Source: a virus (Duplodnaviria > Caudoviricetes). Taken from it: a DNA stretch of 55,781 bases. Positions 101-40,361 of this stretch are shown one piece after another (positions within the stretch are counted from its first letter, which is position 1; each line of letters starts with the position of its first letter). A model generated the notes under the pieces. It searched no databases. It was not told the DNA's origin and saw nothing but the letters and a program-made list of their open reading frames with translations. Position numbers and translations under genes: made by a program. Where the stretch lies: positions 1 to 55,781 of IMG/VR virus record IMGVR_UViG_3300037847_002600; one strand, 5' to 3'.

Positions 101-694
101 CCAAATACGAGACGGATTGAATACTAGTTGGTCCACCTTGGCTCCGTCCTCGTTGCAGAGGAACGCCAGAGTGTCTAGGGCTTCGCGGATCATAGACGAC
201 GGGATGTCTTCACATCTGTACATGAGGTGGTAACCGTTGCCCGAATCGCCCATCAACGGCGCGGGCCACCCTCTTGTTGTCAAGACTTCTAGTACATTCT
301 GGCAGACACGCTCCGCTTCTGCCTTCTCCTCTGCCGTTGCGGACATACCGGCGGGGCGTTCGGGGTCAATGTCGATAAGTATCCACTTAACTTGTTGAAT
401 ATCGGCGTCATGCGCCTGTTCACCGCGTGAACATGGACCTACTTGGTTAAGACGGGCCGTTTTCGCGCTGTTCTTAATAGGATTGGGTGTAAAGTAGACT
501 CCCGACGCCCCTTTCTGCGATAATGCCCCGGCTGCTTGGGCAAATAGGTCCATATCGTCGTAATATCCGCTGAATGTGCGGTTAACGCCGTCGGCACAGG
601 GGACACGCAGGGCTCGAAGCTCTACGATCTGTCCATCTTCCACGATTGAGCGTAAGGCCGAAGCGATTTCGGCCAGATCTGTTGTATATGGCAA
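1..694 (-). CDS. AEP primase-polymerase N-terminal part of primase-helicase (continues across the junction at 55681)
   Basis: Manual translation from TTG at 694 (GGAGGGG RBS): MPYTTDLAEI...WILIDIDPERP...MGDSGNGYHLMY...VDQLVFNPSRIWKVYGT. Has AEP motifs DxD, SGxGxH and D..N..R, and is in frame with 53910..55681. Confidence 0.9.
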   Translation of the reverse strand, partial: MPYTTDLAEIASALRSIVEDGQIVELRALRVPCADGVNRTFSGYYDDMDLFAQAAGALSQKGASGVYFTPNPIKNSAKTARLNQVGPCSRGEQAHDADIQQVKWILIDIDPERPAGMSATAEEKAEAERVCQNVLEVLTTRGWPAPLMGDSGNGYHLMYRCEDIPSSMIREALDTLAFLCNEDGAKVDQLVFNPSRIWKVYGTWARKGEDDSTRPWRKAKLLNPTEVLVPV

Positions 695-704
695 GTTCCC
701 CTCC

Positions 705-935
705 CTAGAATAGGTTTAGCTGCTTGTGTGATTCGTCATATGGGTCGAACACCTCTTCGGGACGTAACATATGCTCGACTGCTAGGGGAGGGATACGTAG
801 TAAACCCCCCACACGGTAAGCCCTCAGCGTGCCGTTGCGTATCCAGCGTTGGATCGTGCGGATACTTACGTTCATATAAGTAGCTACTTCCCTTATACTG
901 AGCATCTGCTCGCCTAATCTGTCGTTGACTGGCAT
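705..935 (-). CDS. Excisionase/MerR-like HTH_17 DNA-binding protein with C-terminal QLNLF
   Basis: MLSIREVATYMNVSIRTIQRWIRNGTLRAYRVGGLLRI is the typical HTH_17 pattern; ATG at 935 follows GGAGG. Confidence 0.85.
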   Translation of the reverse strand: MPVNDRLGEQMLSIREVATYMNVSIRTIQRWIRNGTLRAYRVGGLLRIPPLAVEHMLRPEEVFDPYDESHKQLNLF

Positions 936-959
936 CGTACCTCCCTCAAGGTGCGACAA

Positions 960-988
960 ATGGTAACAAATGACGACACCCCCCGCAA
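960..988 (-). promoter_or_regulatory. Sigma70-type promoter for the HTH/primase operon
   Basis: Minus strand TTGCGG-N17-TACCAT with an extended -10 TG, 25 nt upstream of the HTH start codon. Confidence 0.65.
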
Positions 989-1008
989 GGAAAAGTCTGA
1001 TTTTGCCC

Positions 1009-1282
1009 TGCTACCGAACTGCTACCGAAGTTTGGTAGCACTACTATCTACTTAGAACCTAGCATATCCTCTGACTGCTACCTGCTACCGTTTTTTCCGG
1101 TATAGGCGCTGTATAAAAAGAGAAAAGTACGTTTACTATTTTCTATATTTAGTAGTTGTATATAGCTCTTATAAAGATGTTACCTGACTACCGGTAGCAT
1201 GGTAGCATGGTAGCATTACGTTTATATTATAGGTTTAACCTCGATACCTTACTGCTACCGAATGCTACCAAACGCTACCGAA
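1009..1282. repeat. Iteron array with AT-rich core, putative replication origin
   Basis: TGCTACC at 1009, 1020, 1076, 1083, 1253 and 1263; reverse GGTAGCA at 1034, 1193, 1201 and 1209; variants at 1178, 1186 and 1273. AT-rich core at about 1090-1180; non-coding. Confidence 0.75.
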
Positions 1283-1481
1283 CTAGCCTCAGCACGGGCC
1301 TGTGAGTACGCGATCGCATAGTAACTACAAGATATACTCGTTTGGTTCCCCTGCGAAAACGTTTACGCACCCCCACATCTATTGGGATTAACTAAAAGTG
1401 AAAAATAGTACGTCATGTTGAGCGCACATATCCGGAACGGATCCCCCTCCCCCCAAAGCGGGGGTGCCTCGCCACGCGCAC

Positions 1482-1517
1482 AAAAGCCCCGCGCACCGCG
1501 TGAGCGGCGCACGAGGC
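1482..1517 (-). terminator. Intrinsic terminator of the leftward early transcript
   Basis: Minus-strand RNA GCCUCGUGCGCCGC-UCAC-GCGGUGCGCGGGGC-UUUU forms a 14-bp stem. Its 3 G-U pairs only work on this strand. Confidence 0.75.
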
Positions 1518-1571
1518 GAGCGGCAACGCGTGACCCGTGCGACGTGCGCCGCAACGGGTGCCGCCTTCGCG

Positions 1572-2054
1572 CTACGAAGCGGTGGGCGGGTACACGCGCC
1601 AGTCCGGCTGCCGACGCGTACCGGCGACCAGCGCCCAGCCCTCCTCGACCGTGCAGCCGGTCGCCTTCGCGACACTACGCGCAGCAGCCACGAGCGTACG
1701 AACCTTGGCGGCCTCGACGGGGTCGAGCGGCTTGATATCCTCCCACGCGGGGAGTGCGTGCATCGGGGACGCGTAGGGCTGGTCAACGCACCCGTATGCG
1801 TTCAGGTCGAACCCTGCCTGCTCCACGTCCCATTCATGCTCTGCCGCCGCGATAAGCATCTCCCCCGCCGTGCGTAGCTGGCAGCGTGTGTGAATGCCCA
1901 CCACGAGCATAGGGCGCTTGATACCCTCTTTTACCCACGTTTGCGCCTCGTCGTCGTGCGCAATGTTCCAGTCGCGCTCCTGATACGCGAAGGTGACCTT
2001 TCGTAGCTTATCGTCTGTGTATACGTTGCTTTTTATTGTGACTTTCGTCTTCAT
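1572..2054 (-). CDS. Hypothetical protein (160 aa)
   Basis: ATG at 2054 after a GGGAGAG RBS; globular-looking sequence; followed by the terminator. Confidence 0.65.
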   Translation of the reverse strand: MKTKVTIKSNVYTDDKLRKVTFAYQERDWNIAHDDEAQTWVKEGIKRPMLVVGIHTRCQLRTAGEMLIAAAEHEWDVEQAGFDLNAYGCVDQPYASPMHALPAWEDIKPLDPVEAAKVRTLVAAARSVAKATGCTVEEGWALVAGTRRQPDWRVYPPTAS

Positions 2055-2330
2055 TTTCTCTGCTCTCCCTGCACCCGTGCCGAGTGCGTGTGCCCCGTAT
2101 GCGCGGGGCAGCGCGTCCGACGGACGACCCGCCGGACGAAGACAGAATAGCCCGAACCCCGCCCCGTGGTAGTTTTCGTGACATTCCGTGACAACTTCGG
2201 CGATATTCGGCGTTTGCCCGTGGTCCAGCTTCGAATGTCCAGAATGTGTCAAGCTACGCGTGTGTGTACCTACGAAGCGCACGCGTCGTGTGTGCGCCTG
2301 CGCGTGCGCATGTGTGCGCGGGCGCGCCCG

Positions 2331-2558
2331 TTACGTATCGCATAGTCGCACGGTCTCGTGGTACGTCTCAAGCGTACGGAACCTGAACGTGCACGCGTCG
2401 CAGCTACGCGTGCGTACTACGAAGCCCGTGCCATCGGGTACGCGCTCGCACGCCCAGCGTTGCAGGTATCGCACGCCCGCGTTGCTCGCGTAATGTATTC
2501 CCGACTTCGCGGTCTCGTGCACGCGTGTGCGTAATGATTTGCATTCCGGACATTCCAT
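2331..2558 (-). CDS. NrdR-like N-terminal zinc-ribbon protein (no ATP cone)
   Basis: MECPECKSLRTRVHET...VVRTRSCDACTFRFRTLE matches the NrdR ribbon pattern CPxC..T.V.....R.R.CxxC..RF.T.E; GGAG RBS. Confidence 0.7.
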   Translation of the reverse strand: MECPECKSLRTRVHETAKSGIHYASNAGVRYLQRWACERVPDGTGFVVRTRSCDACTFRFRTLETYHETVRLCDT

Positions 2559-2589
2559 GCGCGTGCGCTCCCCGTGCATACGTACCCCC

Positions 2590-2725
2590 GTATGGTGGGT
2601 CGGCTAGTTTGTCAAGAAAAGAGGCGAAAAAAACTTTTTTTGAATATTTTTTGGCCACCTAAACCCGCTGTTTATGCGGTTCTACAGCGATTCAACAAAA
2701 TATCCTGTTTGCAGCCACAAGCCAG
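2590..2725. promoter_or_regulatory. AT-rich divergent control region
   Basis: A/T tracts at 2617-2652 between divergent genes; minus-strand TTGACA at 2615-2610, but no clean -10. Confidence 0.4.
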
Positions 2726-2904
2726 CGGGGTATGTGGTCCCTGTCGGTCGTGCTTTGCGTCGCCACGGTGGCGGTGCGGGGCGCGGCTGACACGGGGCGC
2801 GTGCGCAATAGCGCGTATGCGAACCCCGTTTAATCCTTGCGCGTGTACGTTGTGTGCGTGCGCAAACCGTGGAGCGCACGAGACCCGTGCGCGTGGAGGT
2901 AGCG

Positions 2905-3342
2905 ATGAGTCCGAAAGAGAAACTAGCGCATGCGAAACAGGCGCTCGCTTGCTTGGTCGAGGCCGACAAGCTTATGAAGATTGTTAACAAGCCCGTGGAC
3001 AAGGGCGGGCACGGGTGCAAGCACCTCACGCATGGCTGGGGTAAGGCCCCGCAGTGCACACGCCGTGTCACGTGGGCGCGACAGAACGCCGTCAAGTGGG
3101 TGGCGCAGTGCGAAGCGGATTTGGCCGCGCACCAAGAGCGCGTGGAGCGTGAGGAGCGTGAGCGCAAAGCCTTAGAGAATCGCGAGGCACAGAAACGTGT
3201 GGAGCGCGTGCAGTTCAGGCGCACACGTGACTGGAACGCCAAGCTCGGGCACATTCAGAGCGCAATCGCGGACCTTGAGCGTCAGCGCGAGTGTGTACTA
3301 AACAACATGCACGCATACGGTGTGGAGGTGCAGGGTGACTAA
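2905..3342 (+). CDS. Hypothetical coiled-coil early protein
   Basis: ATG after GGAGGT; charged helical C-terminal half. Confidence 0.7.
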   Translation: MSPKEKLAHAKQALACLVEADKLMKIVNKPVDKGGHGCKHLTHGWGKAPQCTRRVTWARQNAVKWVAQCEADLAAHQERVEREERERKALENREAQKRVERVQFRRTRDWNAKLGHIQSAIADLERQRECVLNNMHAYGVEVQGD

Positions 3343-3493
3343 CGCCGAGTTCGCCCGTACAAACGGGCAGTTCCGCGCAGCGTGTGAGCGTGCAGGCATC
3401 GAGCCTACACGCCGACAGGCTAGCAAGTTTCGAAACAAGACAGGCGCAGCGTGGGCTGCGCGTAAGGGAGGGTCGAATGTTGAATCCGAATGA
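3335..3493 (+). CDS. Small basic hypothetical protein (52 aa, not in ORF track)
   Basis: GTG after GGAGGTG: MTNAEFARTNGQFRAACERAGIEPTRRQASKFRNKTGAAWAARKGGSNVESE; overlaps both neighbours. Confidence 0.65.
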   Translation: MTNAEFARTNGQFRAACERAGIEPTRRQASKFRNKTGAAWAARKGGSNVESE

Positions 3494-3692
3494 GTTGTGG
3501 TTGTGGCACACGCAGTCGCCTTCGGGCGAGCGTCTGCCTGTGTTCCGTGCGGCGACGCGTGACGATGCGGTCGAGTACTGCGAGCGCGTAGGTTGGACCG
3601 AGTTGCAGCACTTGCAGGGGTTCTGCCCTCGTGTGTACGAGGTTGACCGAGCGACGGGCGACGTTGTGCGTAGGGAGGTGTCCGATGCTTAG
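3477..3692 (+). CDS. Hypothetical protein
   Basis: ATG after GGAGG; part of the coupled early-gene chain. Confidence 0.6.
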   Translation: MLNPNELWLWHTQSPSGERLPVFRAATRDDAVEYCERVGWTELQHLQGFCPRVYEVDRATGDVVRREVSDA

Positions 3693-3942
3693 AGACCTCG
3701 TACGGAAACACGTGGACGAAGACCTCGTATGGGTGATCGTGATTACATGCGTGCCCATGCTGATAGGCTGTGTGGCTATCAAGCACGGAACACGCAGCGT
3801 CGCGCAACAACATGCGTACACGTGGGAGACATGCGCTCCCCTGTGCGTGATAGACGGACTGCAATACGAGCCTAGGCGGTTCGAGTCTGGTGAATGCTGG
3901 TGCGATATGCAGCGCGTTCGTATGGGGGTGACCGATGGGTGA
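3685..3942 (+). CDS. Small Cys-rich membrane protein
   Basis: ATG after GGAGGTG; hydrophobic LVWVIVITCVPMLIGCVAI followed by CxxxC...CxC. Confidence 0.6.
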   Translation: MLRDLVRKHVDEDLVWVIVITCVPMLIGCVAIKHGTRSVAQQHAYTWETCAPLCVIDGLQYEPRRFESGECWCDMQRVRMGVTDG

Positions 3943-4033
3943 GCTACTGTTCACAGGTTGGGACCTGTTCTTTTACACGTGCGCCATGTTCGCGCTCTAC
4001 GTCGGGTTCATGCTCGCAGGGGGTGACGCATGA
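3935..4033 (+). CDS. Micro membrane peptide (32 aa, not in ORF track)
   Basis: MGELLFTGWDLFFYTCAMFALYVGFMLAGGDA; GGGGGTGA RBS; exactly bridges its two neighbours. Confidence 0.55.
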   Translation: MGELLFTGWDLFFYTCAMFALYVGFMLAGGDA

Positions 4034-4302
4034 GCGCACACGACGAAGCGTATATCGCTAAGTTCCAGCCCGAGCCTAACGCGTACGTCATACACGCGGA
4101 CGACACGGGTGAGATGAAGTACTTCCCCACGGACGCTAGCCTGCGACGCTACTGCATGGGCAAGCGTGCGTGGTGCGGGTTTCGCATGGTAGATGACCCC
4201 AAACACAGACACCACGGCATGTATATGCGTGTGTATCCACGAGACGACGAACGCGTAGTCGAGGGTAAACCTGTGATTGCGTGGGATGGAGGTGAGGAAT
4301 GA
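4030..4302 (+). CDS. Hypothetical protein
   Basis: ATGA overlap with the upstream stop; RBS present; ends DGGEE. Confidence 0.65.
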   Translation: MSAHDEAYIAKFQPEPNAYVIHADDTGEMKYFPTDASLRRYCMGKRAWCGFRMVDDPKHRHHGMYMRVYPRDDERVVEGKPVIAWDGGEE

Positions 4303-4515
4303 ATAGAGACACGGTAGCCACATACCGCATAGGCACCCATACCATAGAGGTAGACCTGTGCTGGGAGGGCGAGGAGGGGGCGTTGATCGTCGGCATTCTC
4401 GATACGCAGGGCGCATGCATTAGTCAAGGCGACCCGCACTATGGCGACGTGAGCAAGCTCCTCGAAACGCTGAAAGAAGTAGACCGGATAATCGGGGATG
4501 GAGGTGAGGAATGAA
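4283..4515 (+). repeat. 21-bp direct repeat flanking one gene
   Basis: GGGATGGAGGTGAGGAATGAA at 4283-4303 and 4495-4515. Confidence 0.9.
4299..4514 (+). CDS. Small acidic hypothetical protein
   Basis: Strong RBS and ATGA coupling; ends DGGEE. Confidence 0.65.
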   Translation: MNRDTVATYRIGTHTIEVDLCWEGEEGALIVGILDTQGACISQGDPHYGDVSKLLETLKEVDRIIGDGGEE

Positions 4516-5602
4516 GATGCAACGAATGCGAAAGATGACATGGGAGCGGTTGCGTGCGTACCACGCGGTGGACTCGTGGGACACGGACGTGCACTCACAG
4601 TTTCGGCCCCACTTGCCGATGCTGCCTGCGTTGCAGTTCGTGCGTCCGGAGGTTGACTGGCTGAACATCACGAACGAGCAGGCGCTAGCGGCTATGGCGC
4701 TCACGCCCTCGGGTGCTGTGCGCCCGTTGCTCACCACGAACACGAAGACACGCAAGAGTACAGGCGTGGGTATGTCCACGATGCTGCTGCACCTGTCGCC
4801 CTCGACCGAGTCCGGCTTCAACACGTGCGGACATGCGACGGGCGTCAAGCGTGGCGTCATCACAGCGGGCGTCGGGTGCGCAGGTAACTGCCTTGTGAAC
4901 GCAGGCCAGATGATACTTGACACGTCCAAGGTCTCGCGCATACTCAAGACCGCGCTATACGTGCACTTCGAGCGTATGTTCCTGTGGTTGCTTGACGACC
5001 AACTAACGCGCCATTCGCGCAGCGTTGCGCGGTTGAACATGCGCGAGGCACGACACGGTACGTCGTACATCACAGGCGTACGCTTGAACGGTACGTCCGA
5101 CATACAGTGGGTGCGTCATCACCGATGGCTCATCGAGAAGCATGCGGACATTGTGTTCTACGACTACACGAAGTACCCGTACCAGTTCGCGAGCGCCAAG
5201 CACGTGGACAAGTACAACGTACGCAACTACCACACGACGTACAGTCTACCATCCACGCGCCGGTCACACCTGCGACGTGCGCGTGAGTGGATGCGGCGTG
5301 GTCACAACGTCGCCATCGTGCTGCGCACACGTGCACAGGTGGAGGAGTTGCTAGCCCGTGGTGAGTTCATGGGGCGGTACGTCATCGACGGCGACGAGTC
5401 AGACGCACGCCCGCTCGACAAGCACGAGCGCATAGGCGGCTGGGTGTTGCTGTATGCGAAGGGACATAAGGCGTGCGGCATCAACCGCGAGGATGATTTC
5501 TTTCTGGACCTGCATCGTGCGGAGTTGCCCACGTGGGAGGAGCGTACGTGGGTGCCGCTTCCCGCACAATACGAGCGAGAGGTGACACATGAGTTGCAGT
5601 AG
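4511..5602 (+). CDS. GP88-like protein (radical-SAM-like)
   Basis: Motifs LL..NTK..K, NTC...GCAGNCL, VRLNGTSDI, FYDYTK, NYHTTYS, VIDGDESDAR and LYAKG, recalled from the GP88 family. Confidence 0.7.
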   Translation: MKMQRMRKMTWERLRAYHAVDSWDTDVHSQFRPHLPMLPALQFVRPEVDWLNITNEQALAAMALTPSGAVRPLLTTNTKTRKSTGVGMSTMLLHLSPSTESGFNTCGHATGVKRGVITAGVGCAGNCLVNAGQMILDTSKVSRILKTALYVHFERMFLWLLDDQLTRHSRSVARLNMREARHGTSYITGVRLNGTSDIQWVRHHRWLIEKHADIVFYDYTKYPYQFASAKHVDKYNVRNYHTTYSLPSTRRSHLRRAREWMRRGHNVAIVLRTRAQVEELLARGEFMGRYVIDGDESDARPLDKHERIGGWVLLYAKGHKACGINREDDFFLDLHRAELPTWEERTWVPLPAQYEREVTHELQ

Positions 5603-5876
5603 ATGTCGCGCAACGTGGGACGACCCGCGTTGCAACTGCGAAGAGGAAGAGCGCGAGCGTCAGTACGACCTCGCGTGCGAGGACTACGAGCGGGAGGTGC
5701 GCGAGTACCGTGCCCGCATCATCGAATACCTAAACGCGTGGATAGTGTACGAGTACCAACTTCACGCGAACGTAGGTGACATACGGGAACCGGTGCTAGC
5801 GCCCGCACCGATACACCCAGACGACATGGAGGAGTGGATAGAGGCGCACGAACCGAGTGAAGAGATTCCGTTTTAA
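5589..5876 (+). CDS. Acidic Cys-containing protein ending in EEIPF
   Basis: CxxC..CxC at the N-terminus; about 25 D/E versus 10 R; GAGGTGA RBS. Confidence 0.7.
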   Translation: MSCSRCRATWDDPRCNCEEEERERQYDLACEDYEREVREYRARIIEYLNAWIVYEYQLHANVGDIREPVLAPAPIHPDDMEEWIEAHEPSEEIPF

Positions 5877-5914
5877 CAACACACGTGCGCGGCATGCGCA
5901 CACTGGAGCATAGT

Positions 5915-6199
5915 ATGGGTATATGTAAAGAGGTGTACGCAGGGTACATCGAGATTGACGTGGACTTTGAGGCCGACGAGCTTGTCGAGCACATGGCGGA
6001 TGCGGGCGTGAATATGGAGATGATTTGTAATCACATGCCCAACGACACCATCGTGCGTGGGTTGCGCGAGTACATGTGCGGGGACTGTGACGACCCCGTG
6101 GAGTACAGCATGCTCGAACAACTGGAGGAGCTGGTCAAGGATGCGCGTGCACAGCACGAGCGGGTGAGCGCAGCAGCGCAGGAGGTGAGCGATGGGTAA
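5915..6199 (+). CDS. Highly acidic hypothetical protein
   Basis: ATG after GGAG; about 23 D/E versus 6 K/R in 94 aa. Confidence 0.65.
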   Translation: MGICKEVYAGYIEIDVDFEADELVEHMADAGVNMEMICNHMPNDTIVRGLREYMCGDCDDPVEYSMLEQLEELVKDARAQHERVSAAAQEVSDG

Positions 6200-6431
6200 G
6201 GTAGAGAAGCTTGAGTCAGGAGCGATAGACGTGGGCGGTACGCACAGACCAGTGCACCTGTCCGTGTCGGGAGACGTGAGCGTGCAGGCGTTGGAACGTC
6301 TGTGCAAGACGATGCGTGAGTCGTGCGGAGACGCTGCCATAGCGTATGCGCACACGGATGCAGATGGGAACGAAACGATTCGACTATTCGGGTACGAGCC
6401 TAAGGCTACGGAGGTGAAGCATGGCGCATGA
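6192..6431 (+). CDS. Hypothetical protein
   Basis: GGAGGTGA RBS; coupled overlaps. Confidence 0.6.
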   Translation: MGKVEKLESGAIDVGGTHRPVHLSVSGDVSVQALERLCKTMRESCGDAAIAYAHTDADGNETIRLFGYEPKATEVKHGA

Positions 6432-7467
6432 ACTAGACATGAGCAACGGACGAGCGAACATGATGTATGCGGGTGCACGCCCGTGGCACGGACTAGGTAA
6501 GTACGTAGGCGACCAGCCCGTGACTGCGGAGGAGGCAATCGTCGCCGCAGGTATGGACTGGGACGTGAACCTGCGCGAGATGTACACGTACCCGACGGAC
6601 ACCAGCCTCGCAGTGCAGGTGCCCGACCGGTTCGCGGTTACGCGTAGCGACACGCACGACGTGCTCGGTACGGTAGGCAAGGTGTTCACACCCTTGCAGA
6701 ATCGCGAGGCGTTCAAGTTCATGGACGCGGTCGCAGGCCCCGAGCGTCTCGTGCGCTACCACACGGCGGGTTCGCTGTTCGGTGGCGAGCAGGTGTGGTT
6801 GCTTGCCGAGCTTACGAACCTCGTGGCGGACATCGTACCTAACGACCCGTTGCGCCCGTACATGTGCCTTATCAACGGACACACAGGCAAGATGAACTTG
6901 CAGGTGTTCCCCACGGCTGTGCGTGTTGTGTGCAACAACACGAAGACGATGGCGATAGGCAAGGCGAGAGAGGACAAGGACACGAGCCCGTACGTGAAGA
7001 TACGCCACTCGCGTAGGATTCACGACAAGGTCGAGGAGGCGCGACGTGCGCTAGGCTTTGCGGTCGAGCGCGTGGAGTTGTTCACGGGGTGCATGCGTCA
7101 CCTCGCACGCAAGCCCATCACGTCTGCCCAGTGGAGCGACGTACTGGACCAGCTTGTCCCCGTGCCTGAGTTGCCCGAGGGTAAGGACTCCTCACGTGGA
7201 CGCACGATGGCGATGAACAAGCACGCACGACTCACGGAGTTGTTCGAGGCAGGCATCGGTACAGACATCCCCGGTGTGCGTGGCACGGGTTGGGGTGCGT
7301 ACAATGCGATCACGCAGTACACGACACACGATTTCGCTGTGCGTGCAGGCAACAAGGACGCGTCCGACTACCAGCAACGCAAGAGCGAGCGGTTGCTCGA
7401 CTCCTCGTGGTTCGGCGCAGGTGCGGACATGAACAAGCGTGGCCTGAAGCTACTGCTTGATGCATGA
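6421..7467 (+). CDS. DUF932 / phage-plasmid-like (TIGR03299-type) protein
   Basis: MAHEL...PWHGLG...AGMDW.V...LG.VG..F.PLQN.EAF...TAGSL.GG..VW.LA...RVVC.NT...IRH...GT.WGAYNAITQY. Confidence 0.85.
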   Translation: MAHELDMSNGRANMMYAGARPWHGLGKYVGDQPVTAEEAIVAAGMDWDVNLREMYTYPTDTSLAVQVPDRFAVTRSDTHDVLGTVGKVFTPLQNREAFKFMDAVAGPERLVRYHTAGSLFGGEQVWLLAELTNLVADIVPNDPLRPYMCLINGHTGKMNLQVFPTAVRVVCNNTKTMAIGKAREDKDTSPYVKIRHSRRIHDKVEEARRALGFAVERVELFTGCMRHLARKPITSAQWSDVLDQLVPVPELPEGKDSSRGRTMAMNKHARLTELFEAGIGTDIPGVRGTGWGAYNAITQYTTHDFAVRAGNKDASDYQQRKSERLLDSSWFGAGADMNKRGLKLLLDA

Positions 7468-7550
7468 TAGACGTGTCCGCTAAGCTGCTCACCCTGTGCG
7501 TGTGTGTGCTCACAGGGTGGTGGCTCTTCAAACAGTATGACTACAAGTGA
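7464..7550 (+). CDS. Possible micro membrane peptide (28 aa)
   Basis: MIDVSAKLLTLCVCVLTGWWLFKQYDYK, ATGA-coupled; overlaps a 9-bp hairpin at 7490-7519. Confidence 0.35.
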   Translation: MIDVSAKLLTLCVCVLTGWWLFKQYDYK

Positions 7551-7555
7551 GCCTT

Positions 7556-7585
7556 GCGCACCGGTGCACATGCCGGTGCGCCTTT
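7556..7585 (+). terminator. Possible terminator/attenuator hairpin
   Basis: GCGCACCGG-N8-CCGGTGCGC followed by CTTT (short U tract). Confidence 0.4.
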
Positions 7586-7597
7586 GGAGATACGTAG

Positions 7598-7867
7598 ATG
7601 ATTTGCAAACGATGTGGAGCAAACGCGTTGCGCGTGACGGACGTGACGCACAATAATGTGGAGTGCGCACCCAGTCGAGAGTACCTGCGACGCTGGGGTA
7701 AGCGCGTAGCCTTGGAGAAGTTCGCGTACCACGCACGTGTCCCGTGGACTGCGCGTCGCCTCGTGTGTGATGCGTGCGGTGCGCAGTTACGTACGATAGA
7801 GGTGACGGTGGACCACGTACCACGGAGGTGGACGCGGAAGGTGTCGGAAGGAGAGGAGGAGGAATAG
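7598..7867 (+). CDS. Second NrdR-like zinc-ribbon protein
   Basis: MICKRCG...LRVTDV...YLRRW...ARRLVCDACGAQLRTIE; paralog of 2331..2558. Confidence 0.65.
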   Translation: MICKRCGANALRVTDVTHNNVECAPSREYLRRWGKRVALEKFAYHARVPWTARRLVCDACGAQLRTIEVTVDHVPRRWTRKVSEGEEEE

Positions 7868-7888
7868 ATAGTAGGTTATGCTACGTGT

Positions 7889-8086
7889 ATGCATACGAAG
7901 CACATCGACCTAGACCTAGGCGTGGCTCCTGACTTCGAGGAGCGCGTGATATATCAGGTCGTATCTGATATGTTCGAGGTCGAGGTGTCGTTCGAGGACA
8001 CATCCGTGTGCATACGCGGAGACGCCCGCAACCTTACAGCGTGGATAGCCTTTCACATACTGCCCATGGAGGTAGTGGAGGCGTAG
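7889..8086 (+). CDS. Small acidic hypothetical protein
   Basis: Fills the gap in the + strand gene chain. Confidence 0.5.
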   Translation: MHTKHIDLDLGVAPDFEERVIYQVVSDMFEVEVSFEDTSVCIRGDARNLTAWIAFHILPMEVVEA

Positions 8087-8088
8087 AG

Positions 8089-8298
8089 ATGCCGATATAC
8101 GAGTACGAGTGCGACGCCTGCGGGCACCGGTTCGAGGTGCTGGTGCGCGATCGCACAGCAAAGAGCGCGTGCCCTGAGTGCGCCAGTGATAAACTAAACC
8201 GTTTGATAAGTACCTGCGCGTTCGCCCTCAAAGGCGGGGGCTGGTACGCAGATGGGTACAGCAGTGCCCAAGGAGGGGGAGATGAACCCGTGGGATAG
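8089..8298 (+). CDS. FmdB-family zinc-ribbon protein
   Basis: MPIYEYECDACGHRFE...CPECAS..L.RLIS...F.LKGGGWY is the family signature; GGAGG RBS. Confidence 0.9.
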   Translation: MPIYEYECDACGHRFEVLVRDRTAKSACPECASDKLNRLISTCAFALKGGGWYADGYSSAQGGGDEPVG

Positions 8299-9763
8299 AG
8301 CAGAGATACGCGAGCGCGTGAAGCCTTGGGTACTAGATGGATACTTAACAGAGTACCAGCGTGAGGCGTGGTCGTGGTCCGCTACGCGTGACGGGTCGTT
8401 CCTCTGGTGGGCATGCGGCGCAGGCAAGACACTCGGCGCACTGTTGTGGCTCGTGTCGCATAGTCGCAGGACACGCAAGGTGGTTGTTACGAAGGCTGCT
8501 ACTAAGCGTCAGTGGAAAGCGCAGGGCGCACAGTACACGGACATGCAGATGCTGGTGCTCGACGGGCAAGGTGGCATGGACATACCACAAGAAACAGAAT
8601 GCATAGTAATCTCGTGGGAGACGCTCATGCATTGGTACCCGTACATCCTGACGTGGAAGGGCATGCGTCCGCTCGTCATCGTGTGGGACGAGATACACAA
8701 GGGCAAAGCTTGGAAACGCAAGGAGAAGATACTCGACGAGGACGGCGACATCCAGTGGGTGTGGCTGGAGAACCGTGCAGCGTACGCTGCTAAGTTGAGT
8801 CGCATAGCAAGCGCACGCCTTGGGCTTACAGCTACACCGATACGTGACAGGCGACGTGACCTGTGGGCACAGCTCGACCTCATTCAGCCCGAGCAGCACG
8901 GGACAAACTGGAACTGGGTGCACCGCTTCTGCGCAGCAAAGCAGGGCGAGTACGGTGGAATCGACACCACGGGCGAGAGCAACTGCGCACAACTTAAACA
9001 TATACTTAGTCGCATAGTACACGCTGTGTCGTATGCGGAGATGGCTAGGAGCTTACCGCCCAAGCGGCGTCAGCTTGTGTACCTGTCACCGAGTGAGCAG
9101 ACGAAGCCCTCGGCGTTCCGAGACACACTGAAGCGTGCAGCCAAGATGGGCAAGCAGCATCTGTTCGAGGCGAACCTGTCGGTCGCAGCATCGACCAAGC
9201 GCAAGTGGATCGCAGACTCAGTGATGAGCTGCGTTGAAGCTGGACAAAAGGTAGCAGTGTTTACAGGTAGACGCAAGGACTGCGACGCCCTCGCCAAACT
9301 TATTAAGACACGCGTAAAGAAACTTGGTGCTCCTGTGTGGCATGGCCATGGTGGCGACTCTGTTAAGTATCGCATGGAGCAGGTCGCACAGTACGCAGCG
9401 GCCCAAGGGGCAGGCGTCTTTGTAGGTACGACCGACGCTTTCGGCGAAGCCATCGACGGGCTACAGCACACCGACGCAGTGTACTTTGCTATGTTGCCAT
9501 GGACACCGGGGCAGGTTACTCAGGCTGAGGGACGCTTCAGTAGGCACGGCTCAGACCGGCCAGTACTGTTGACCTACGTTGTATCTGAGGGTACTGTTGA
9601 CGAACATGTCGCAGATGTTTTGCTGGAGAAGTTGGAGGGTGTGTCGGGCGTGACAGGTGACGAGGATGCGACCGCACTGGCAGGGACACTTGCAGGTGAT
9701 GGTCATGAGGATGAGATAATGGATTCGATTTTAGATTTGGCCGCACTGGCCGGGAGTTTATGA
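8282..9763 (+). CDS. SF2 (SNF2/DEAD-like) helicase
   Basis: YQRE, CGAGKT, WDEIH, LTATP, GEAIDGL and QAEGR..R motifs. Confidence 0.9.
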   Translation: MNPWDRAEIRERVKPWVLDGYLTEYQREAWSWSATRDGSFLWWACGAGKTLGALLWLVSHSRRTRKVVVTKAATKRQWKAQGAQYTDMQMLVLDGQGGMDIPQETECIVISWETLMHWYPYILTWKGMRPLVIVWDEIHKGKAWKRKEKILDEDGDIQWVWLENRAAYAAKLSRIASARLGLTATPIRDRRRDLWAQLDLIQPEQHGTNWNWVHRFCAAKQGEYGGIDTTGESNCAQLKHILSRIVHAVSYAEMARSLPPKRRQLVYLSPSEQTKPSAFRDTLKRAAKMGKQHLFEANLSVAASTKRKWIADSVMSCVEAGQKVAVFTGRRKDCDALAKLIKTRVKKLGAPVWHGHGGDSVKYRMEQVAQYAAAQGAGVFVGTTDAFGEAIDGLQHTDAVYFAMLPWTPGQVTQAEGRFSRHGSDRPVLLTYVVSEGTVDEHVADVLLEKLEGVSGVTGDEDATALAGTLAGDGHEDEIMDSILDLAALAGSL

Positions 9764-10041
9764 TGGCAACGAAGATGATGTTGACAGACGACATAGAGGA
9801 AATGCTAGACCAGATGGCAGACAAGCACGGTGCACGTACCGTCGTCTCCGCACTGGCGGAAGCAACAGGCGAAACCCTGCGTCACTTTGAAGAGAAGTTC
9901 GGGCTGGACGAAGTGGCCGACACTTTTGAAGAAGAGATGATGTACTGGTACATGGGACACGGGCATGCGGGTGCGCGTGCCGAGCGACTACAAGAAGCAA
10001 CTGATGTGTGGATGTGGGCACAGGCTGCGGCTGACGCATGA
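9760..10041 (+). CDS. Acidic hypothetical protein
   Basis: ATGA-coupled; D/E-rich. Confidence 0.6.
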   Translation: MMATKMMLTDDIEEMLDQMADKHGARTVVSALAEATGETLRHFEEKFGLDEVADTFEEEMMYWYMGHGHAGARAERLQEATDVWMWAQAAADA

Positions 10042-10880
10042 AACATCTCATCGATCCGGGCCCGTCTCGCAAGGGATGGCACCGGTTACAGAAGGTACTC
10101 ACGTGCCCGCGTTTGTACGCGCTATCCTACCTGACCGACGCGCCGCCGGTCCGCAAGGGCGACCCGCCTGAGCCCCTCGTAAAAGGCTCGATGCTGCACG
10201 TCGCACTCGCACACCACTACGCCGACGGCATGGAAGAGTACGCAGACAAAGACCTGTACACTCCTACGGATGCGGTGCAGCAACTTGTCGAGCTACAGCC
10301 CAACGATGAGCGTGCCGCATGGCAGCGCCACGCCAAGCAGGTGTGCGCTACGTATGCAGACTACAACATGCACTGGGGCAAGGAACGCTGGAAGCCCATG
10401 GGTATTGAAACAGAACTGATGGTAAACATCTTCGACGAGAAGATGAACCGCACGTACCTGTACACGCAACGTGTTGACCTCGCATGGCGACACCCCATGA
10501 CGGGTAAGGTCTGGTTCGTAGACCACAAGACGACTGCACGCTGGACACCCCAGACACTTAGTAAGTACTCGATGAACGGACAGTTCCTTGGGTACCAGAT
10601 GATCGGGGAGAAGAAGTTCGGCGACGATTGGGGTGGCGTGCTGCTCAACGTCATCGAGTGGGGCAAGGGCGGAGGCTCGCCAACATTTAAGAGGATGCCG
10701 GTTGACCCAGCTCCGCACTCGGTTGAGCGGTTCCGCCAGTCCATTATTCGCGGGGAGCGTACGCTTCTGGAGTATGAAAACATGGAGCCCAAGGATTGGC
10801 CGGGGGCTCATCACGACGGTGCGTGCTGGCCGTATCGACAGTGCAAGTTCTATTCGACATGTCAGTGGGGAGGTAAATGA
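10038..10880 (+). CDS. PD-(D/E)XK Cas4/RecB-like exonuclease
   Basis: TCPR, G..LH, E.EL, RVDL, VDHKT, and C-terminal C....C.F...C Fe-S ligands. Confidence 0.85.
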   Translation: MKHLIDPGPSRKGWHRLQKVLTCPRLYALSYLTDAPPVRKGDPPEPLVKGSMLHVALAHHYADGMEEYADKDLYTPTDAVQQLVELQPNDERAAWQRHAKQVCATYADYNMHWGKERWKPMGIETELMVNIFDEKMNRTYLYTQRVDLAWRHPMTGKVWFVDHKTTARWTPQTLSKYSMNGQFLGYQMIGEKKFGDDWGGVLLNVIEWGKGGGSPTFKRMPVDPAPHSVERFRQSIIRGERTLLEYENMEPKDWPGAHHDGACWPYRQCKFYSTCQWGGK

Positions 10881-11782
10881 TGAGTGAGGAAGGTGTGTTT
10901 ATTATTGTGTACGGAGGCGCGAAGTCAGGCAAGACGCTGGCGACAGTCCGCGCATTCCCAGATGGGTTGTTCGTTACGCCGAAGGGCGGACTGACGTGCG
11001 CTCGGTGGATTGACTGGGAGCCCAAGGTTATCGAGACCGACGACAAGGGCTACGGCGTGCCGCAGATAACGGAGATGATCAAGCAGGCACAAGATAAGTA
11101 TCCTGCTATTATCATCGACGACTTCAGCATCATCCTCCAGCAGGAGCTACAGCGATGCAAGAAGAGTCACGCAGGGTGGACAGCGTTCGACGTGTTCAAC
11201 AACCGTGTGTATGCGTTGCGCGACGCTGCTCGCCTAGCCAAGTGCCACGTCGTACTGACGATGCACGAGCAGGCACCCAAGGAAGTTGGGCAGGAGAATG
11301 AGAAGCGATGGGTCCGAGGTTGTCCCATGGTACCGGGCTGGCAGTTGCCCGAGAAGTTACCTACACACGCAGACATTGTGGCACGTGTAATCTATGACGA
11401 GTCGGCGTTCGGTTGGCCGTACCTGCTACAGACAGGGCCCGACAACCAGTACGTCACGGGAGACAGGCTGGCGATCACACCCGAGAGGTTCCCGCTAAAC
11501 ATCCGTGAGGTGCTGTTGTTATCAGGACACACAGGTGTGAAGCGTCCTGACAAGTTGGCGTTCATGGACAAGTGGGTGTATGATATTTCGCAAGAGCTGG
11601 TAACTGAGCTTGACAGCAGACGACCCAAGGTTAAGGGGGTACTCGCCCCGTATGTTGAACGGTTGCAGAAGGAGGGAGTTAGGGACAGATGGATTCGGTG
11701 GATCTTCGCCGATGCCATAGATAGGGCGCAGATGACGCGCCATAATGATAGTTTGATTGATAACTTTTTAGTTTCATTGTGA
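10877..11782 (+). CDS. AAA_24/Sak4-like ATPase (recombinase)
   Basis: IVYGGAKSGKT, IIIDDFS, VVLTMHE and ADIVAR; lies between the nuclease and the SSB candidate. Confidence 0.75.
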   Translation: MMSEEGVFIIVYGGAKSGKTLATVRAFPDGLFVTPKGGLTCARWIDWEPKVIETDDKGYGVPQITEMIKQAQDKYPAIIIDDFSIILQQELQRCKKSHAGWTAFDVFNNRVYALRDAARLAKCHVVLTMHEQAPKEVGQENEKRWVRGCPMVPGWQLPEKLPTHADIVARVIYDESAFGWPYLLQTGPDNQYVTGDRLAITPERFPLNIREVLLLSGHTGVKRPDKLAFMDKWVYDISQELVTELDSRRPKVKGVLAPYVERLQKEGVRDRWIRWIFADAIDRAQMTRHNDSLIDNFLVSL

Positions 11783-11789
11783 GGATAAG

Positions 11790-12290
11790 ATGAGTATTGA
11801 CTTTGATTTTAGTGGAGTATCGCTGAACGAGAGCCCTGCCGAAGAGGGCATCTACCCAGTGGAGATCGAATACGTAGACGGCTACGTCACCAAGACAGGC
11901 AACAAGCGTGTCACCTTCAAGGCTAAGGTCTGCGAAGGCGAAGCCAAGGGCTGCGTCATCAAGGATGGCATCAACCTGCCGACCGTGAAGTCGCAAGGCG
12001 TCAAGAAGGTATGGCTTGGATTCTTCCGCTCGCTGGGCATGAGCCCCGCTGAGGTGGCTGACGTGTTCAGTGGTATGTCTGGCAAGGGCGACGAGAGCGC
12101 CGAGTTCTACGCCGAGTGCATCGGCAAGGTGGTCGTTGGTCTCAAGGGCTACTGCTACTACGCACCTGCGGTTGAGGAAGGCGGCTGGCCTACTCGCAAC
12201 TGGTTGACTCCGCAACAGGCACGAGCACAGGCGAAGACCCGTGCCAAGTCTGGAGGAGACGACGCGCTAGGTGATTTCATCAACGTCTAG
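11790..12290 (+). CDS. DUF669-like single-stranded DNA-binding protein
   Basis: IDFDFSGV..P.EEGIY.VEI...KTGN......KV.EGE.KG..I.D; position after the Sak4-like gene. Confidence 0.7.
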   Translation: MSIDFDFSGVSLNESPAEEGIYPVEIEYVDGYVTKTGNKRVTFKAKVCEGEAKGCVIKDGINLPTVKSQGVKKVWLGFFRSLGMSPAEVADVFSGMSGKGDESAEFYAECIGKVVVGLKGYCYYAPAVEEGGWPTRNWLTPQQARAQAKTRAKSGGDDALGDFINV

Positions 12291-12298
12291 TACGTTGT

Positions 12299-12347
12299 GG
12301 GTGCCTTGGACTAACACCAAAAATGCTTACACCAAGGCACCCTTTTT
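12299..12347 (+). terminator. Intrinsic terminator-like hairpin
   Basis: GGGTGCCTTGG-N22-CCAAGGCACCC-TTTTT directly after the SSB stop codon. Confidence 0.6.
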
Positions 12348-12356
12348 GGAGACGAT

Positions 12357-12533
12357 ATGAACTGTTGGCACTGCAACACAGAACTTATCTGGGGTGGCGA
12401 CCACGAAGCCGAGGGTAGCACGGTGTACACGATGGTGACGAACCTGACCTGTCCAAACTGCGACTCGCTGGTGCTGGTCTACTCTGGTGTACAGACGGAG
12501 CCCCCGGCTCGGATTGTGTTTGATGAGGAGTGA
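12357..12533 (+). CDS. Small Zn-ribbon protein (58 aa, not in ORF track)
   Basis: MNCWHCNTELIWGGDHE...YTMVTNLTCPNCDSLVLVY; GGAG RBS; a pattern I recall from aquatic phage genomes. Confidence 0.75.
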   Translation: MNCWHCNTELIWGGDHEAEGSTVYTMVTNLTCPNCDSLVLVYSGVQTEPPARIVFDEE

Positions 12534-12798
12534 CCTCACCGTTCCTGAGATAGATGCGCTAGAGCGTCTCATGAAAGAGTGGGAGGTCAAGCGTGCGGAC
12601 TGCACGCCGATGGAGAAGCTTGGCTTCCATCGCCTCAAGAAGAAGGGTCACGTACGCATCAAGAAGGGTACGTACTTAATGCCCTGTGATCTCACAGATG
12701 AAGAGTTCGATGCTTGGTTCTTCTGGCTGGAGGACGTGCTCGAACTCGCACCAAGGGAGGGTCCATTGGAGGTAGGTTCCGGCCATCCAGATGGCTAA
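12523..12798 (+). CDS. Hypothetical protein (possible winged helix)
   Basis: Overlaps the previous gene; FHRLKKKGHVRIKKGTY resembles a wHTH wing. Confidence 0.5.
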   Translation: MRSDLTVPEIDALERLMKEWEVKRADCTPMEKLGFHRLKKKGHVRIKKGTYLMPCDLTDEEFDAWFFWLEDVLELAPREGPLEVGSGHPDG

Positions 12799-12906
12799 AG
12801 GAACACTGATTGCTACATACGATAGTATGTAGATTGTGACTAATAGGGCACCGAGTTCTCTGTTATCCATTCTCATAACTATAACTTAGTCTCTAGGGAG
12901 GGACAC

Positions 12907-15381: not shown

Positions 15382-16370
15382 TTAAGACACTGATTACGAA
15401 TGTGAAGGAAGAAGGCGGAGAGGATAGGCTGTATAGGTTCAAGAGTCCGTACGTGCTAGTGTACGGAAGGAACGGAGCGGGCAAGTCTTCGATCATGCAC
15501 GGACTGGAGCTAGCCTGCTTTGGTAAGGTGTGTGATGTCGTAGGTAAGGACATCAAGCTTAAACGATACATCGAGTACCTGTCGGCGGAGGGCTCGACAG
15601 TACACGCTCGGATTCACACATCGGATAACGGACGGCTGTCGTACCCCAAGCATGCAGGCGACACGGGTGAGGAATACCTGAACGCGGTGCAGCTTGCACT
15701 GGACGCCATCAAAGGAAGCAACGTCGCGTTCGCTAAGTTCTTACTTAAGTACTTAGAAAACGATGTAGAGTTGGACGTGCCTATCCACGGATGGGATGCA
15801 GTGGTTACGTCGTCGAAGAACCACAGGGAGGCCCTGTTGCGCGTCGAAGAGTCTACGGCGAAGCGACTACGCTCGCACCGTGCGAAGCTCAAGGAGCTGG
15901 ACATCGTAGCCAAGTACGCCGGTAGCGGTGTCACAGCAGCAGAACGGATGGACGTTGAGGAGGACGTGGACAAAGCGAAGCGTCACCTCAAGGCGATTCA
16001 TCGGGAGATGTTTAGGTTCGTCACAGAAGCTTGGGGTCCACTGATGGAGTACATGCGTAGGTTCCTGCCGGATGATATGCCTGATGCTGAGTTGATAGCC
16101 TCGGACTCTGACTTCACGTTGGGCTTCGAGAACCGGCCATACCCTTCGGGCGCGGAGACCGTGGCCCTAGCTGTGGCCCTCGCTGCTGCGGTGCTACCAG
16201 CGGAGCGGTCGATATACATCTTTCCTGATAGAGCGTACGATGAATACACGTTAGGTAGGCTTATGAGCGCAGTGCGCATTGTGCCTGCTGCGGGCGTGTT
16301 CGTTCAGAGCACGGTAATGCCAAGCTGTTACGAAGCGGAGAAGTTAGGATGGCAGACGCTCGGAGTTTGA
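15378..16370 (+). CDS. Short Rad50/SbcC-like ABC ATPase
   Basis: LVYGRNGAGKSS Walker A, short coiled coil, PSGAE signature, degenerate Walker B IFPDRAYD. Confidence 0.7.
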   Translation: MIKTLITNVKEEGGEDRLYRFKSPYVLVYGRNGAGKSSIMHGLELACFGKVCDVVGKDIKLKRYIEYLSAEGSTVHARIHTSDNGRLSYPKHAGDTGEEYLNAVQLALDAIKGSNVAFAKFLLKYLENDVELDVPIHGWDAVVTSSKNHREALLRVEESTAKRLRSHRAKLKELDIVAKYAGSGVTAAERMDVEEDVDKAKRHLKAIHREMFRFVTEAWGPLMEYMRRFLPDDMPDAELIASDSDFTLGFENRPYPSGAETVALAVALAAAVLPAERSIYIFPDRAYDEYTLGRLMSAVRIVPAAGVFVQSTVMPSCYEAEKLGWQTLGV

Positions 16371-16897
16371 CCCAACGTATCCTTCACGCCCTGCCATCAT
16401 GGGAGGGCTACAGCTACGGACACAAGGTGGACTTCCCATCTTGTGTCCGTGGCGCTCCCACGTCGCTGGTCGAGTCAGGTACTAAGCAGATAGACTGTTC
16501 GACGTTCACGTGGGGGCTGCTGTGTCAGGTGTACCCTGATGCGGACTGGAGCTTCGACAGGTACAAGAAGTGGCAGATGTGGGACCGTGACGACAAGTGG
16601 GGTCCGATCAGCCAAGCCCTGTCGATGGAGATCACGTCTAAGGATGACGGCGACGGTTGGTATCTATACCAAGTGTGGAAGGGTGAGTGGCGTGGCGGAC
16701 ACTCGTTCCTCGCATGCAAGGCAGGCGACGACCTGCTTGTGCTTGAAGCCACGAACGCTGCGAGACCAGTACCCGGTGTCGTCTGGCGGTACGTAGGCGA
16801 AGCTAGCACGAACGCGCTGCCACCTTGGCCCGTGTACACCGAGGAGGACGCAACCAAGGGCTACGTCTACTCCAAGGTTAAACTAGACGGGAGCTGA
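16349..16897 (+). CDS. NlpC/P60-like cysteine peptidase (endolysin candidate)
   Basis: Y.YG...IDCSTF...GHS...VLEA gives a Cys-His-Glu triad pattern. Confidence 0.6.
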   Translation: MADARSLTQRILHALPSWEGYSYGHKVDFPSCVRGAPTSLVESGTKQIDCSTFTWGLLCQVYPDADWSFDRYKKWQMWDRDDKWGPISQALSMEITSKDDGDGWYLYQVWKGEWRGGHSFLACKAGDDLLVLEATNAARPVPGVVWRYVGEASTNALPPWPVYTEEDATKGYVYSKVKLDGS

Positions 16898-17260
16898 CCC
16901 ATACAGCAAAGCGATGTCAACTGGATTCGCTGTTGCAGATGGTGTCCCTGTATTTACTTGGGTGGTTGTGACGATGTACGAGAAGTACCCAATCTCGGTT
17001 CCCGCAGGCATGATGATGTGCTGCTTCGTAGACCCCTCGACCTTCCAGATTTGAAAAGGTGCGTTACTAGCATGCGCAGGCGAAGCCGCGTTGTAGATCT
17101 TAAGAAACGTCACCGCCGAGTTAGCTGTGTTGTCTATCTCTAGCTGGTACAACGTGACCTTGGTGTCTGCCAAAGGGTTGTTGACTGCGGTAGCGTTCGA
17201 GACCGTAGCTGTGTAAACGAAGCCGCCGATGGGACCTAAGAGGGGTTGAATCTGCGCCAT
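16883..17260 (-). CDS. Small beta-rich virion-associated protein
   Basis: GAGGT RBS; FLKIYNA..P motif shared with the next gene. Confidence 0.65.
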   Translation of the reverse strand: MAQIQPLLGPIGGFVYTATVSNATAVNNPLADTKVTLYQLEIDNTANSAVTFLKIYNAASPAHASNAPFQIWKVEGSTKQHIIMPAGTEIGYFSYIVTTTQVNTGTPSATANPVDIALLYGSAPV

Positions 17261-17268
17261 AGTTTACC

Positions 17269-39690: not shown

Positions 39691-39708
39691 AAGGGCCTCC
39701 TTACAAGC

Positions 39709-40357: not shown

Positions 40358-40361
40358 CTTC

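Follow-up and report, generated by a model that had tools for sequence, protein, structure and literature searches.

In the window analysed here, a complete virus contig of 55,781 nucleotides (nt) from the Caudoviricetes (IMG/VR record IMGVR_UViG_3300037847_002600), purines (R) and pyrimidines (Y) alternate with raised frequency over positions 1470-10000. This compositional domain is real, strong, well-delimited and lineage-specific, and it coincides with two diverging gene blocks. The simplest description of it is that adjacent pyrimidines are avoided in the transcripts of the two diverging units. We refer to 1470-10000 (or 2000-9000) as the arm, to 9000-16900 as the middle and to 16900-55781 as the late class, and we infer from gene content and order that the two diverging blocks are early. 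We hypothesized, tentatively, that their transcripts escape Rho or similar host factors that bind pyrimidine-rich RNA. Supplements aside, a literature search turned up no account of phage early regions in which alternation is raised, or pyrimidine tracts are depleted, on a kilobase scale.

Extent and orientation of the alternation domain

Alternating steps make up 0.589 of all steps in 1470-10000, compared with 0.508 in the rest of the window. When all 60-nt lines were counted, a mean of 34.8 out of 59 steps alternated in 1470-10000 (n = 142), compared with 29.8 out of 59 in 16900-55700 (n = 646; Mann–Whitney p = 1.5e-30). A preliminary description of this DNA had relied on hand counts of three lines, 50/59 (2281-2340), 45/59 (5281-5340) and 24/59 (47341-47400); we reproduced all three exactly, yet these lines are extremes. 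The perfect 22-nt alternating run (2299-2320) and the 15-nt run near 7495 (7495-7509) that it pointed out are both present, and the hexamers it called abundant (ACGCGT, GTGCAC, CACGTG and TGCGCA) occur at 1.4-2.0 per kilobase (kb) inside the domain and 0.11-0.57 per kb outside. Alternation in 1-kb windows was 0.572-0.623 for 2001-9000, 0.54-0.55 for 9-11 kb, and 0.43-0.56 elsewhere. With only 15% of the window, 1470-10000 has 21 of the 30 longest alternating runs. No 2-kb value in 174 other phage loci (2.11 Mb) was above 0.585, a level exceeded at 21 overlapping 2-kb positions of the window (maximum 0.612).

Cumulative sum (CUSUM) analysis placed change-points at 1469 and 10501, with a sharp left border and a graded right border. 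The bias had been said to fade with distance, which describes the rightward side, where per-gene values are 0.686, 0.625, 0.595, 0.560, 0.544, 0.535 and 0.496; leftward it ends at a sharp edge. Fully alternating hexamers reach 10.7%, against a comparison value of 2.8%. A single repeated motif was rejected as the cause: these hexamers are as frequent as first-order Markov statistics predict, and the most over-represented words include none of them.

On any strand, the step frequencies satisfy YY = Y − alt/2 and RR = R − alt/2, where alt is the alternation (verified here). From the first of these identities, alternation can be read as the footprint of pyrimidine-pyrimidine (YY) avoidance on the sense strand. 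Sense YY was 0.226 in late, 0.189 in middle and 0.143 in arm genes, a drop of 37%, while purine-purine (RR) steps were at 0.267, 0.289 and 0.270, respectively (arm minus late, +0.003). The arm loss of 0.083 in YY divides into 52% from higher purine content and 48% from alternation, and all four YY dinucleotides are at 0.60-0.67 of their late-gene values. Pyrimidine runs of at least 6 nt occur at 1.39 per kb in the arm and 5.88 per kb in late genes (4.2-fold rarer), compared with 32.0 and 34.0 per kb for purine runs of at least 4 nt.

The effect follows gene orientation. On the sense strand, YY was 0.142 for the pair of − strand genes of the arm and 0.143 for its + strand genes; that the bias spans both strands and unrelated genes had already been noticed. 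Sense purine content was 0.556 in − strand and 0.566 in + strand arm genes, compared with 0.521 in late genes, and both arm groups thus qualify as purine-loaded. The non-coding spacer 2052-2330 follows its − sense strand. The features of the domain and its surroundings are as follows.

1469-10501, no strand: domain of raised alternation, from CUSUM change-points and window and line statistics
1486-1517, − strand: putative terminator hairpin closing the leftward unit, near the left domain edge (14 pairs, 11 of them G-C, T-rich tail; a consensus match)
1572-2051, − strand: leftward gene without an assigned family (alternation 0.568, sense YY 0.161)
2052-2330, − strand: spacer in the leftward unit (alternation 0.608; sense YY 0.158, RR 0.234 on the − strand), with alternating runs at 2255-2269 (15 nt) and 2299-2320 (22 nt)
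2331-2579, − strand: NrdR-like zinc-ribbon gene, the strongest gene (alternation 0.685-0.686)
2580-2904, no strand: gap between the diverging blocks and putative promoter hub, with an AT-rich core at about 2550-2700 and, at 2838-2864, a 27-nt alternating tract with one break
2905-9763, + strand: rightward block of small open reading frames (ORFs) and named genes (sense YY 0.143, purine 0.566, no [(YC)N9-13]6 motif)
4511-5602, + strand: GP88-like gene of the rightward block
6421-7467, + strand: DUF932 gene of the rightward block
7495-7509, no strand: 15-nt alternating run in the spacer 7468-7597, present too in strain L001
7598-7867 and 8089-8298, + strand: zinc ribbon genes of the rightward block
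8282-9763, + strand: SNF2 helicase gene of the rightward block
9760-16897, + strand: replication block (PD-(D/E)XK, AAA_24, DUF669, PolA and others) with an intermediate bias, mostly at synonymous sites (sense YY 0.189; purine at codon position 3 after pyrimidine at position 2, 0.601)

The leftward block runs from 2579 to 1572, in the order NrdR-like zinc ribbon, unknown gene and then the hairpin (1517-1486), and the rightward genes as a whole run from 2905 to 16897. The AT-rich core of the hub (about 2550-2700) is itself non-alternating (0.49-0.51). The bias had been called positional; the domain does coincide with the two diverging blocks and ends on the left at the hairpin, but the same position in related phages is unremarkable.

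Coding controls and comparison with relatives

The enrichment persists after correction for amino acids, codons and GC content. Alternation between codon positions 1 and 2, 2 and 3, and 3 and the next 1 (a12/a23/a31) was 0.530/0.607/0.620 in early genes, compared with 0.462/0.513/0.543 in late genes. With amino acids kept, early genes reached 0.528 with late codon usage and 0.555 with their own usage, compared with the observed 0.586. At codon junctions (a31), synonymous shuffling of early genes gave 0.530 versus 0.620 observed (z = 12); for late genes the values were 0.508 and 0.543. The choice of amino acids, the choice among synonymous codons and the codon context thus all contribute with the same sign. 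NYR codons replace NYY codons in early relative to late genes (GCG 0.44/0.27, ACG 0.55/0.30, GTG 0.55/0.23), and ATA accounts for 0.41 of Ile codons in early and 0.17 in late genes, without any phage tRNA gene. At four-fold sites, the frequency of a purine in position 3 after a pyrimidine in position 2 was 0.678 in early, 0.601 in middle and 0.487 in late genes (relatives, 0.43-0.54), while that of a pyrimidine after a purine stayed steady at 0.66-0.72. Four spacers in the arm alternate at 0.57-0.61, compared with 0.41-0.53 for spacers elsewhere.

Three further candidates were rejected. GC content as a cause is contradicted by relatives L096 and L100 (L numbers are our locus handles), whose arms have a GC of 0.58-0.64 and alternate only at about 0.50. 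Compared with late genes, early genes encode 4.4-fold more Cys and 2.6-fold more His; the orthologs do not differ from those of the relatives in either residue, so this enrichment reflects protein type and not a DNA-driven effect. Arm RNA folds better than mononucleotide shuffles by 2.9 ± 0.7 kcal/mol per 120 nt, but RNA structure as the selected property is contradicted by non-alternating relatives that do equally well or better (L005 −4.4, L090 −2.9); the gain in the DUF932-AAA24 stretch of the window is only −0.7.

Comparison with related phages had been proposed as a check on the bias. Relatives were found via DUF932 homologs and PolA, giving 17 contigs (18 loci) with a common gene order and PolA 60-65% identical. 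Their equivalent arms lack the enrichment: per kb, alternation lies at about 0.44-0.55, and only single peaks rise to 0.567 and 0.576 (L096 and L100 included). Gene by gene, the window and L004/L005 compare as 0.685 and 0.473/0.474 (zinc ribbon), 0.595 and 0.499/0.509 (DUF932), 0.560 and 0.482/0.479 (SNF2), 0.544 and 0.507/0.504 (PD-(D/E)XK), 0.535 and 0.481/0.484 (AAA_24), and 0.520 and 0.490/0.489 (PolA). PolA and two downstream genes exceed their 14-17 orthologs at synonymous positions, with a12 within 0.01; for PolA, a23 is 0.545 compared with 0.494 and a31 is 0.561 compared with 0.520. Late genes are close to their orthologs. The bias is common only to strains L001 and L106 (0.55-0.61), which are about 91-97% identical in DNA. 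The force is lineage-specific and graded: it goes from strong (arm) through mild (replication block) to slight (late genes).

The bias does not follow gene ancestry, since the orthologs in the 17 syntenic relatives are without it. Genes 2905-6431 mostly lack orthologs in L004/L005; DUF932, SNF2 and the downstream genes are orthologous and syntenic, yet biased. By protein identity, the genes from DUF932 through g16349 are closest to one subgroup throughout (L004, L005, L085 and L103). Because arm and middle genes share this closest subgroup, they appear to be of common ancestry, and the bias arose within the present phage lineage. It points to a force at the level of the nucleic acid that can prevail over codon preference and shift amino acids in conserved proteins, which is relevant to the synonymous recoding of phages. 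Among strain polymorphisms, the transition/transversion ratio is 2.3 in the arm versus 3.5 and 2.9 elsewhere; another estimate is about 3.1.

Small arm genes come and go among the strains. Contigs of 2025 seawater runs skip 3497-4011, 4180-4499 and 6019-6410, and likewise 1581-1690 and 3170-3323, and strain L106 is without gene 6192-6431. Genes 16883-17646 and 18982-19587 are only 32-53% identical to those of the otherwise near-identical strain L001. At the contig end L005:1-2500, a GC-rich stretch (0.63-0.65) has slightly elevated alternation (0.53-0.58) and no similarity to window proteins.

Candidate causes of the pyrimidine spacing

We propose that the arm transcripts offer no loading sites to Rho or to similar pyrimidine-binding host RNA factors, a reading to which we give a probability of roughly one in three. 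In the two blocks diverging from about 2580-2904, sense-strand pyrimidines are kept apart, about half of the effect being a swap of pyrimidine for purine (purine loading) and the other half a spacing of the remaining pyrimidines between purines. This rule acts on nucleic acid and not on proteins, since it shapes spacers as well as synonymous sites and the junctions between codons, and to a mild degree the choice of amino acids; selection on early transcripts, rather than mutation, would maintain it. Rho loads on single-stranded, pyrimidine-rich RNA with C over G, and other host factors that bind or cut RNA likewise favour tracts of pyrimidines or of U. Phage messages that precede any countermeasure would then be intrinsically poor substrates, and antisense RNA of the same DNA an excellent one. 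It is possible, if doubtful, that one lineage recently rewrote about 9 kb of early genes into oligopyrimidine-poor transcripts, with composition-encoded protection against Rho or host RNA surveillance replacing antiterminator or anti-Rho proteins.

The descriptors of Rho-dependent terminators given in PMC6144790 are C>G bubbles, spaced YC dimers, %YC and low %G, and PMC12360218 describes how Rho silences foreign and prophage genes and how phages carry anti-Rho proteins. The arm sense strands lack Rho-type motifs. Starts of [(YC)N9-13]6 occur at 0.0 per kb on both of them (6859 and 1094 nt), compared with 1.3 per kb in the middle, 2.8 per kb in the late region and 14.7 per kb on the arm antisense strand. 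Among 78-nt windows, the fraction with C>G is 0.14 for one arm sense strand and 0.32 for the other, compared with 0.25 for the middle and 0.45 for the late region. By both bubbles and spaced YC dimers, the arm sense strands are poor in Rho utilization (rut) sites.

Several observations weigh against this proposal. In the SNF2 gene, purine content equals that of the relatives, and YY and RR drop together; a pyrimidine in position 3 after a purine in position 2 is more frequent than in the orthologs in five of seven genes. Where purine content is constant, a loss of YY cannot be distinguished from a loss of RR or from alternation, and selection may act on alternation itself instead of on YY avoidance. 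The number of runs of at least 15 nt exceeds a local-rate model (10 versus 2.6), which simple YY avoidance does not predict. CT and TT are depleted as much as the Rho-preferred TC and CC. The relatives' sense strands are already rut-poor without alternation (1.3-4.9 per kb), and these phages manage without the bias; comparison with them gave no arm-specific extra RNA structure. None of the 24 runs listed is an RNA run. A scan for sigma-70 promoters and terminators found no enrichment (9 found versus 6.9 and 10.3 expected), and no sigma-70-like promoter matches lie in the hub (2580-2904). Strain polymorphisms give no sign of ongoing constraint (transversions, 9 versus 8).

Some alternatives place the cause in the DNA. 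The first-entering or earliest-exposed DNA could meet host nucleases before anti-defence proteins are made, and its composition could avoid their targets. Observed/expected ratios (order 2) of GATC are 0.24 in the arm, 0.40 in the middle and 0.79 in the late region, and those of GGCC are 0.54, 0.77 and 0.88. The avoidance is specific to palindromes, since non-palindromic RRYY words stay at or above 0.96 in the arm, and restriction pressure is heavy genome-wide: AATT occurs 0 times, compared with 38 (maximal-order Markov) or 140 (base composition) expected, and CCCGGG, CCGCGG, CGCGCG, CGGCCG, GCCGGC, GGCGCC, GAGCTC, GTCGAC and CAGCTG (7.5-25 expected each) are absent from the whole window. Nuclease evasion is nevertheless an unlikely cause of the alternation, which is generic and without a motif, a first-order model being sufficient. 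A 20-40% loss of a step protects from nothing, alternating palindromes are 2-13 times denser in the arm, and a strand-oriented component is unexpected for duplex targets. GATC and AATT are also avoided in relatives without alternation (AATT = 0 in 7 of the 14 checked; GATC in L004/L005 at 10/48 and 20/70). The site avoidance is a separate DNA-level signal that, being present in these relatives too, does not explain the alternation. Avoidance of CRISPR protospacer adjacent motifs was rejected, AAG, TTC, CC and GG being no rarer than their dinucleotides predict. DNA shape, by which alternating tracts would form Z-DNA or cruciforms that absorb the supercoils of divergent transcription, or would raise bendability, appears very unlikely. 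It would account for the excess of runs of at least 15 nt (2.63 expected under the local-rate model, P = 0.0005) and for the longest tracts beside the hub (2255-2269, 2299-2320 and 2838-2864), which are made of CG and CA/TG steps. As put forward in the preliminary description, absorption of supercoils by Z-DNA fails for the bulk of the signal: just 14% of arm bases are in runs of at least 8 nt, only three runs are 18 nt or longer, and (CG)3, which forms Z-DNA most readily, does not occur (CGCGCG 0 and GCGCGC 1 in the arm). Of 21 runs, 6 lie in non-coding DNA, which is no significant excess (P = 0.086), the bias reaches 8 kb from the hub, and its purine-loading half is strand-specific. The domain as a whole does not have the character of a Z-DNA tract; Z-DNA is possible at a few tracts near the hub, of which 2299-2320 and 2838-2864 are weak candidates. 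Relatives at 60-65% PolA identity have no counterpart region, and the strains at about 91-97% DNA identity are too close to show whether alternation is kept while letters change. The suggestion of flexibility for tight bending predicts a strand-symmetric effect at a physical end, and the observed effect tracks transcription direction. Protection from ultraviolet (UV) light, with fewer dipyrimidine sites and so fewer photoproducts in the genes that work first, is scarcely credible. Counted on the sense strand, YY+RR goes down from 0.493 to 0.413, as does TT+AA, from 0.104 to 0.066, and dipyrimidine avoidance, as proposed earlier, is descriptively right for that strand only. The UV rationale does not hold: the whole absolute YY loss is on the non-template strand, template dipyrimidines (sense RR) are at 0.270 versus 0.267, and it is the template-strand dipyrimidines that block RNA polymerase. 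Avoidance driven by UV would appear on both strands, above all on the template, and does not; the marine relatives also lack the bias.

Other alternatives concern mutation, elongation and import. A neighbour-dependent mutation bias caused by transcription, through damage or repair on the exposed non-template strand and without selection, is improbable, even though the bias follows transcription direction, decreases from early to middle to late, and affects coding and non-coding DNA alike. Context-free mutation cannot lift alternation over 2*R*Y, about 0.49, and the known context-dependent processes (deamination and UV) are transitions, which never alter the R/Y pattern and so count against a mutational origin. 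The sense strand has A > T, the reverse of C-to-T loading, and four-fold sites (about 0.68-0.72) alternate more than spacers (0.57-0.61), the reverse of a purely neutral process. Relatives of the same gene order show nothing of it. The same orientation and tract data, with pyrimidine runs depleted and purine runs not, would also fit selection on transcription, in which avoidance of weak pyrimidine-RNA:purine-DNA hybrids keeps elongation processive, with fewer pauses, slips and intrinsic stops. Terminator-like sites in 600-17600 are not enriched (9 versus 10.3 expected), in line with this. Such processivity might matter if transcription helps to draw the genome into the cell, as it does in T7. 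We consider selection for processivity quite improbable, given that the leftward 1.1-kb unit is equally biased though unable to pull in the rest of the genome, and that the relatives are without the bias. Import of the arm from a phage lineage with a genome-wide signature draws on the common mosaicism of these phages (the g20231 protein is 99% identical to that of L090, whose PolA is 61% identical), on genes 2905-6431 being mostly without L004/L005 orthologs, and on the gain and loss of small arm genes among strains. It is highly improbable: DUF932 through g16349 are closest to the same subgroup, the bias declines gradually over orthologous genes, and the 174 loci surveyed all lie below the arm level. 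By identity, the arm does not have the affinity unlike its neighbours that would mark a horizontal island, and import merely shifts the question to the donor.

The proposal that the arm transcripts evade Rho can be set beside known systems. Szybalski's transcription-direction rule is the purine loading of sense strands. The arm resembles it in that the purine excess flips with gene orientation, and differs in that no more than 52% of the YY loss can be put down to such loading, the remainder being rearrangement at constant composition, and in that the effect is confined to a 9-kb domain and one lineage. Phage early and late genes differ in codon usage according to PMC5683454, and those of the present phage likewise choose synonymous codons differently. 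Here the choice of third base varies with the class of the base before it and of the base that opens the next codon, and the bias extends to spacers, favours the rare ATA and is missing from the relatives' orthologs, all of which argues against translational tuning. Compared with rut sites, the arm sense strands are the inverse, with few YC dimers, G over C and no spaced YC arrays. Known phage strategies against Rho, such as P4 Psu and lambda N and Q (PMC6144790 and PMC12360218), work through proteins or RNA elements directed at Rho or at polymerase; in the arm, the proposed protection would lie in the composition of an 8-kb transcript.

Two further systems are similar in part. Supercoil-driven Z-DNA tracts occur at divergent promoters, and a few CG/CA-type tracts of 15-27 nt adjoin the gap here; those are single tracts of about 40 nt, whereas the arm has a kilobase-scale step bias with mostly short runs and avoids (CG)3. 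The pre-early (first-step-transfer) region of T5 and the class I early region of T7 share with the arm their small early-type genes and an avoidance of restriction sites (GATC and GGCC) stronger than in the rest of the genome, which is a mark of a pre-early segment. We know of no purine-pyrimidine alternation in either region.

If the arm transcripts do evade Rho, alternation would be a general, searchable footprint of 'stealth' early transcripts, and composition alone could shield the first phage messages from termination or decay. Uncultured phages could then be screened, by alternation together with sense YY, for early units and host-factor pressure. Should the reading be wrong, there is still a well-delimited, lineage-specific compositional domain without known cause.

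Gene layout and further features of the contig

The ends of the contig repeat over about 100 nt with few mismatches (1-100 and 55682-55781), and a primase-helicase ORF spans the end junction, with the edge reading frames 1 base out of phase on simple joining. Because the ends overlap and this gene lies across the junction, the assembly is circular or terminally redundant and coordinate 1 is arbitrary. All genes outside the rightward transcription block (helix-turn-helix, primase-helicase, terminase, portal and structural genes) are on the − strand. A megablast search against GenBank phages gave no close match, and PolA was at most 27% identical among the matches listed. A search of bacterial assemblies for relatives found none, and hence gave no host signature for comparison. 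No known RNA families were found, and no tRNA genes are carried. The arm is present, at least partly, in 20 marine or seawater metagenome runs from 17 studies.

For two giant ORFs on the − strand, 21045-27242 (2065 aa) and 46480-52332 (1950 aa), sequence searches of Pfam, PHROG and PDB gave no match, and the first is only 24-38% identical to the relatives' counterparts. A virion RNA polymerase was considered for the two and rejected, as these searches gave no match. The late gene 20231-20689, whose near-identity to its L090 counterpart is given above, points to recent exchange between lineages. Three genes at 38481-40856 form the opposite anomaly, with alternation of only 0.43-0.46 and sense purine of 0.56-0.61; one of them has weak coiled-coil-type Pfam matches and may encode a scaffold-like protein.

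Of the 159 ORFs of at least 80 aa in the window, 42 lie within 1388-9824 (15% of its length), many of them overlapping on both strands. This excess arises because alternating sequence contains few stop codons (YRR, or YYR on the other strand), and gene finders are likely to over-call in the arm.

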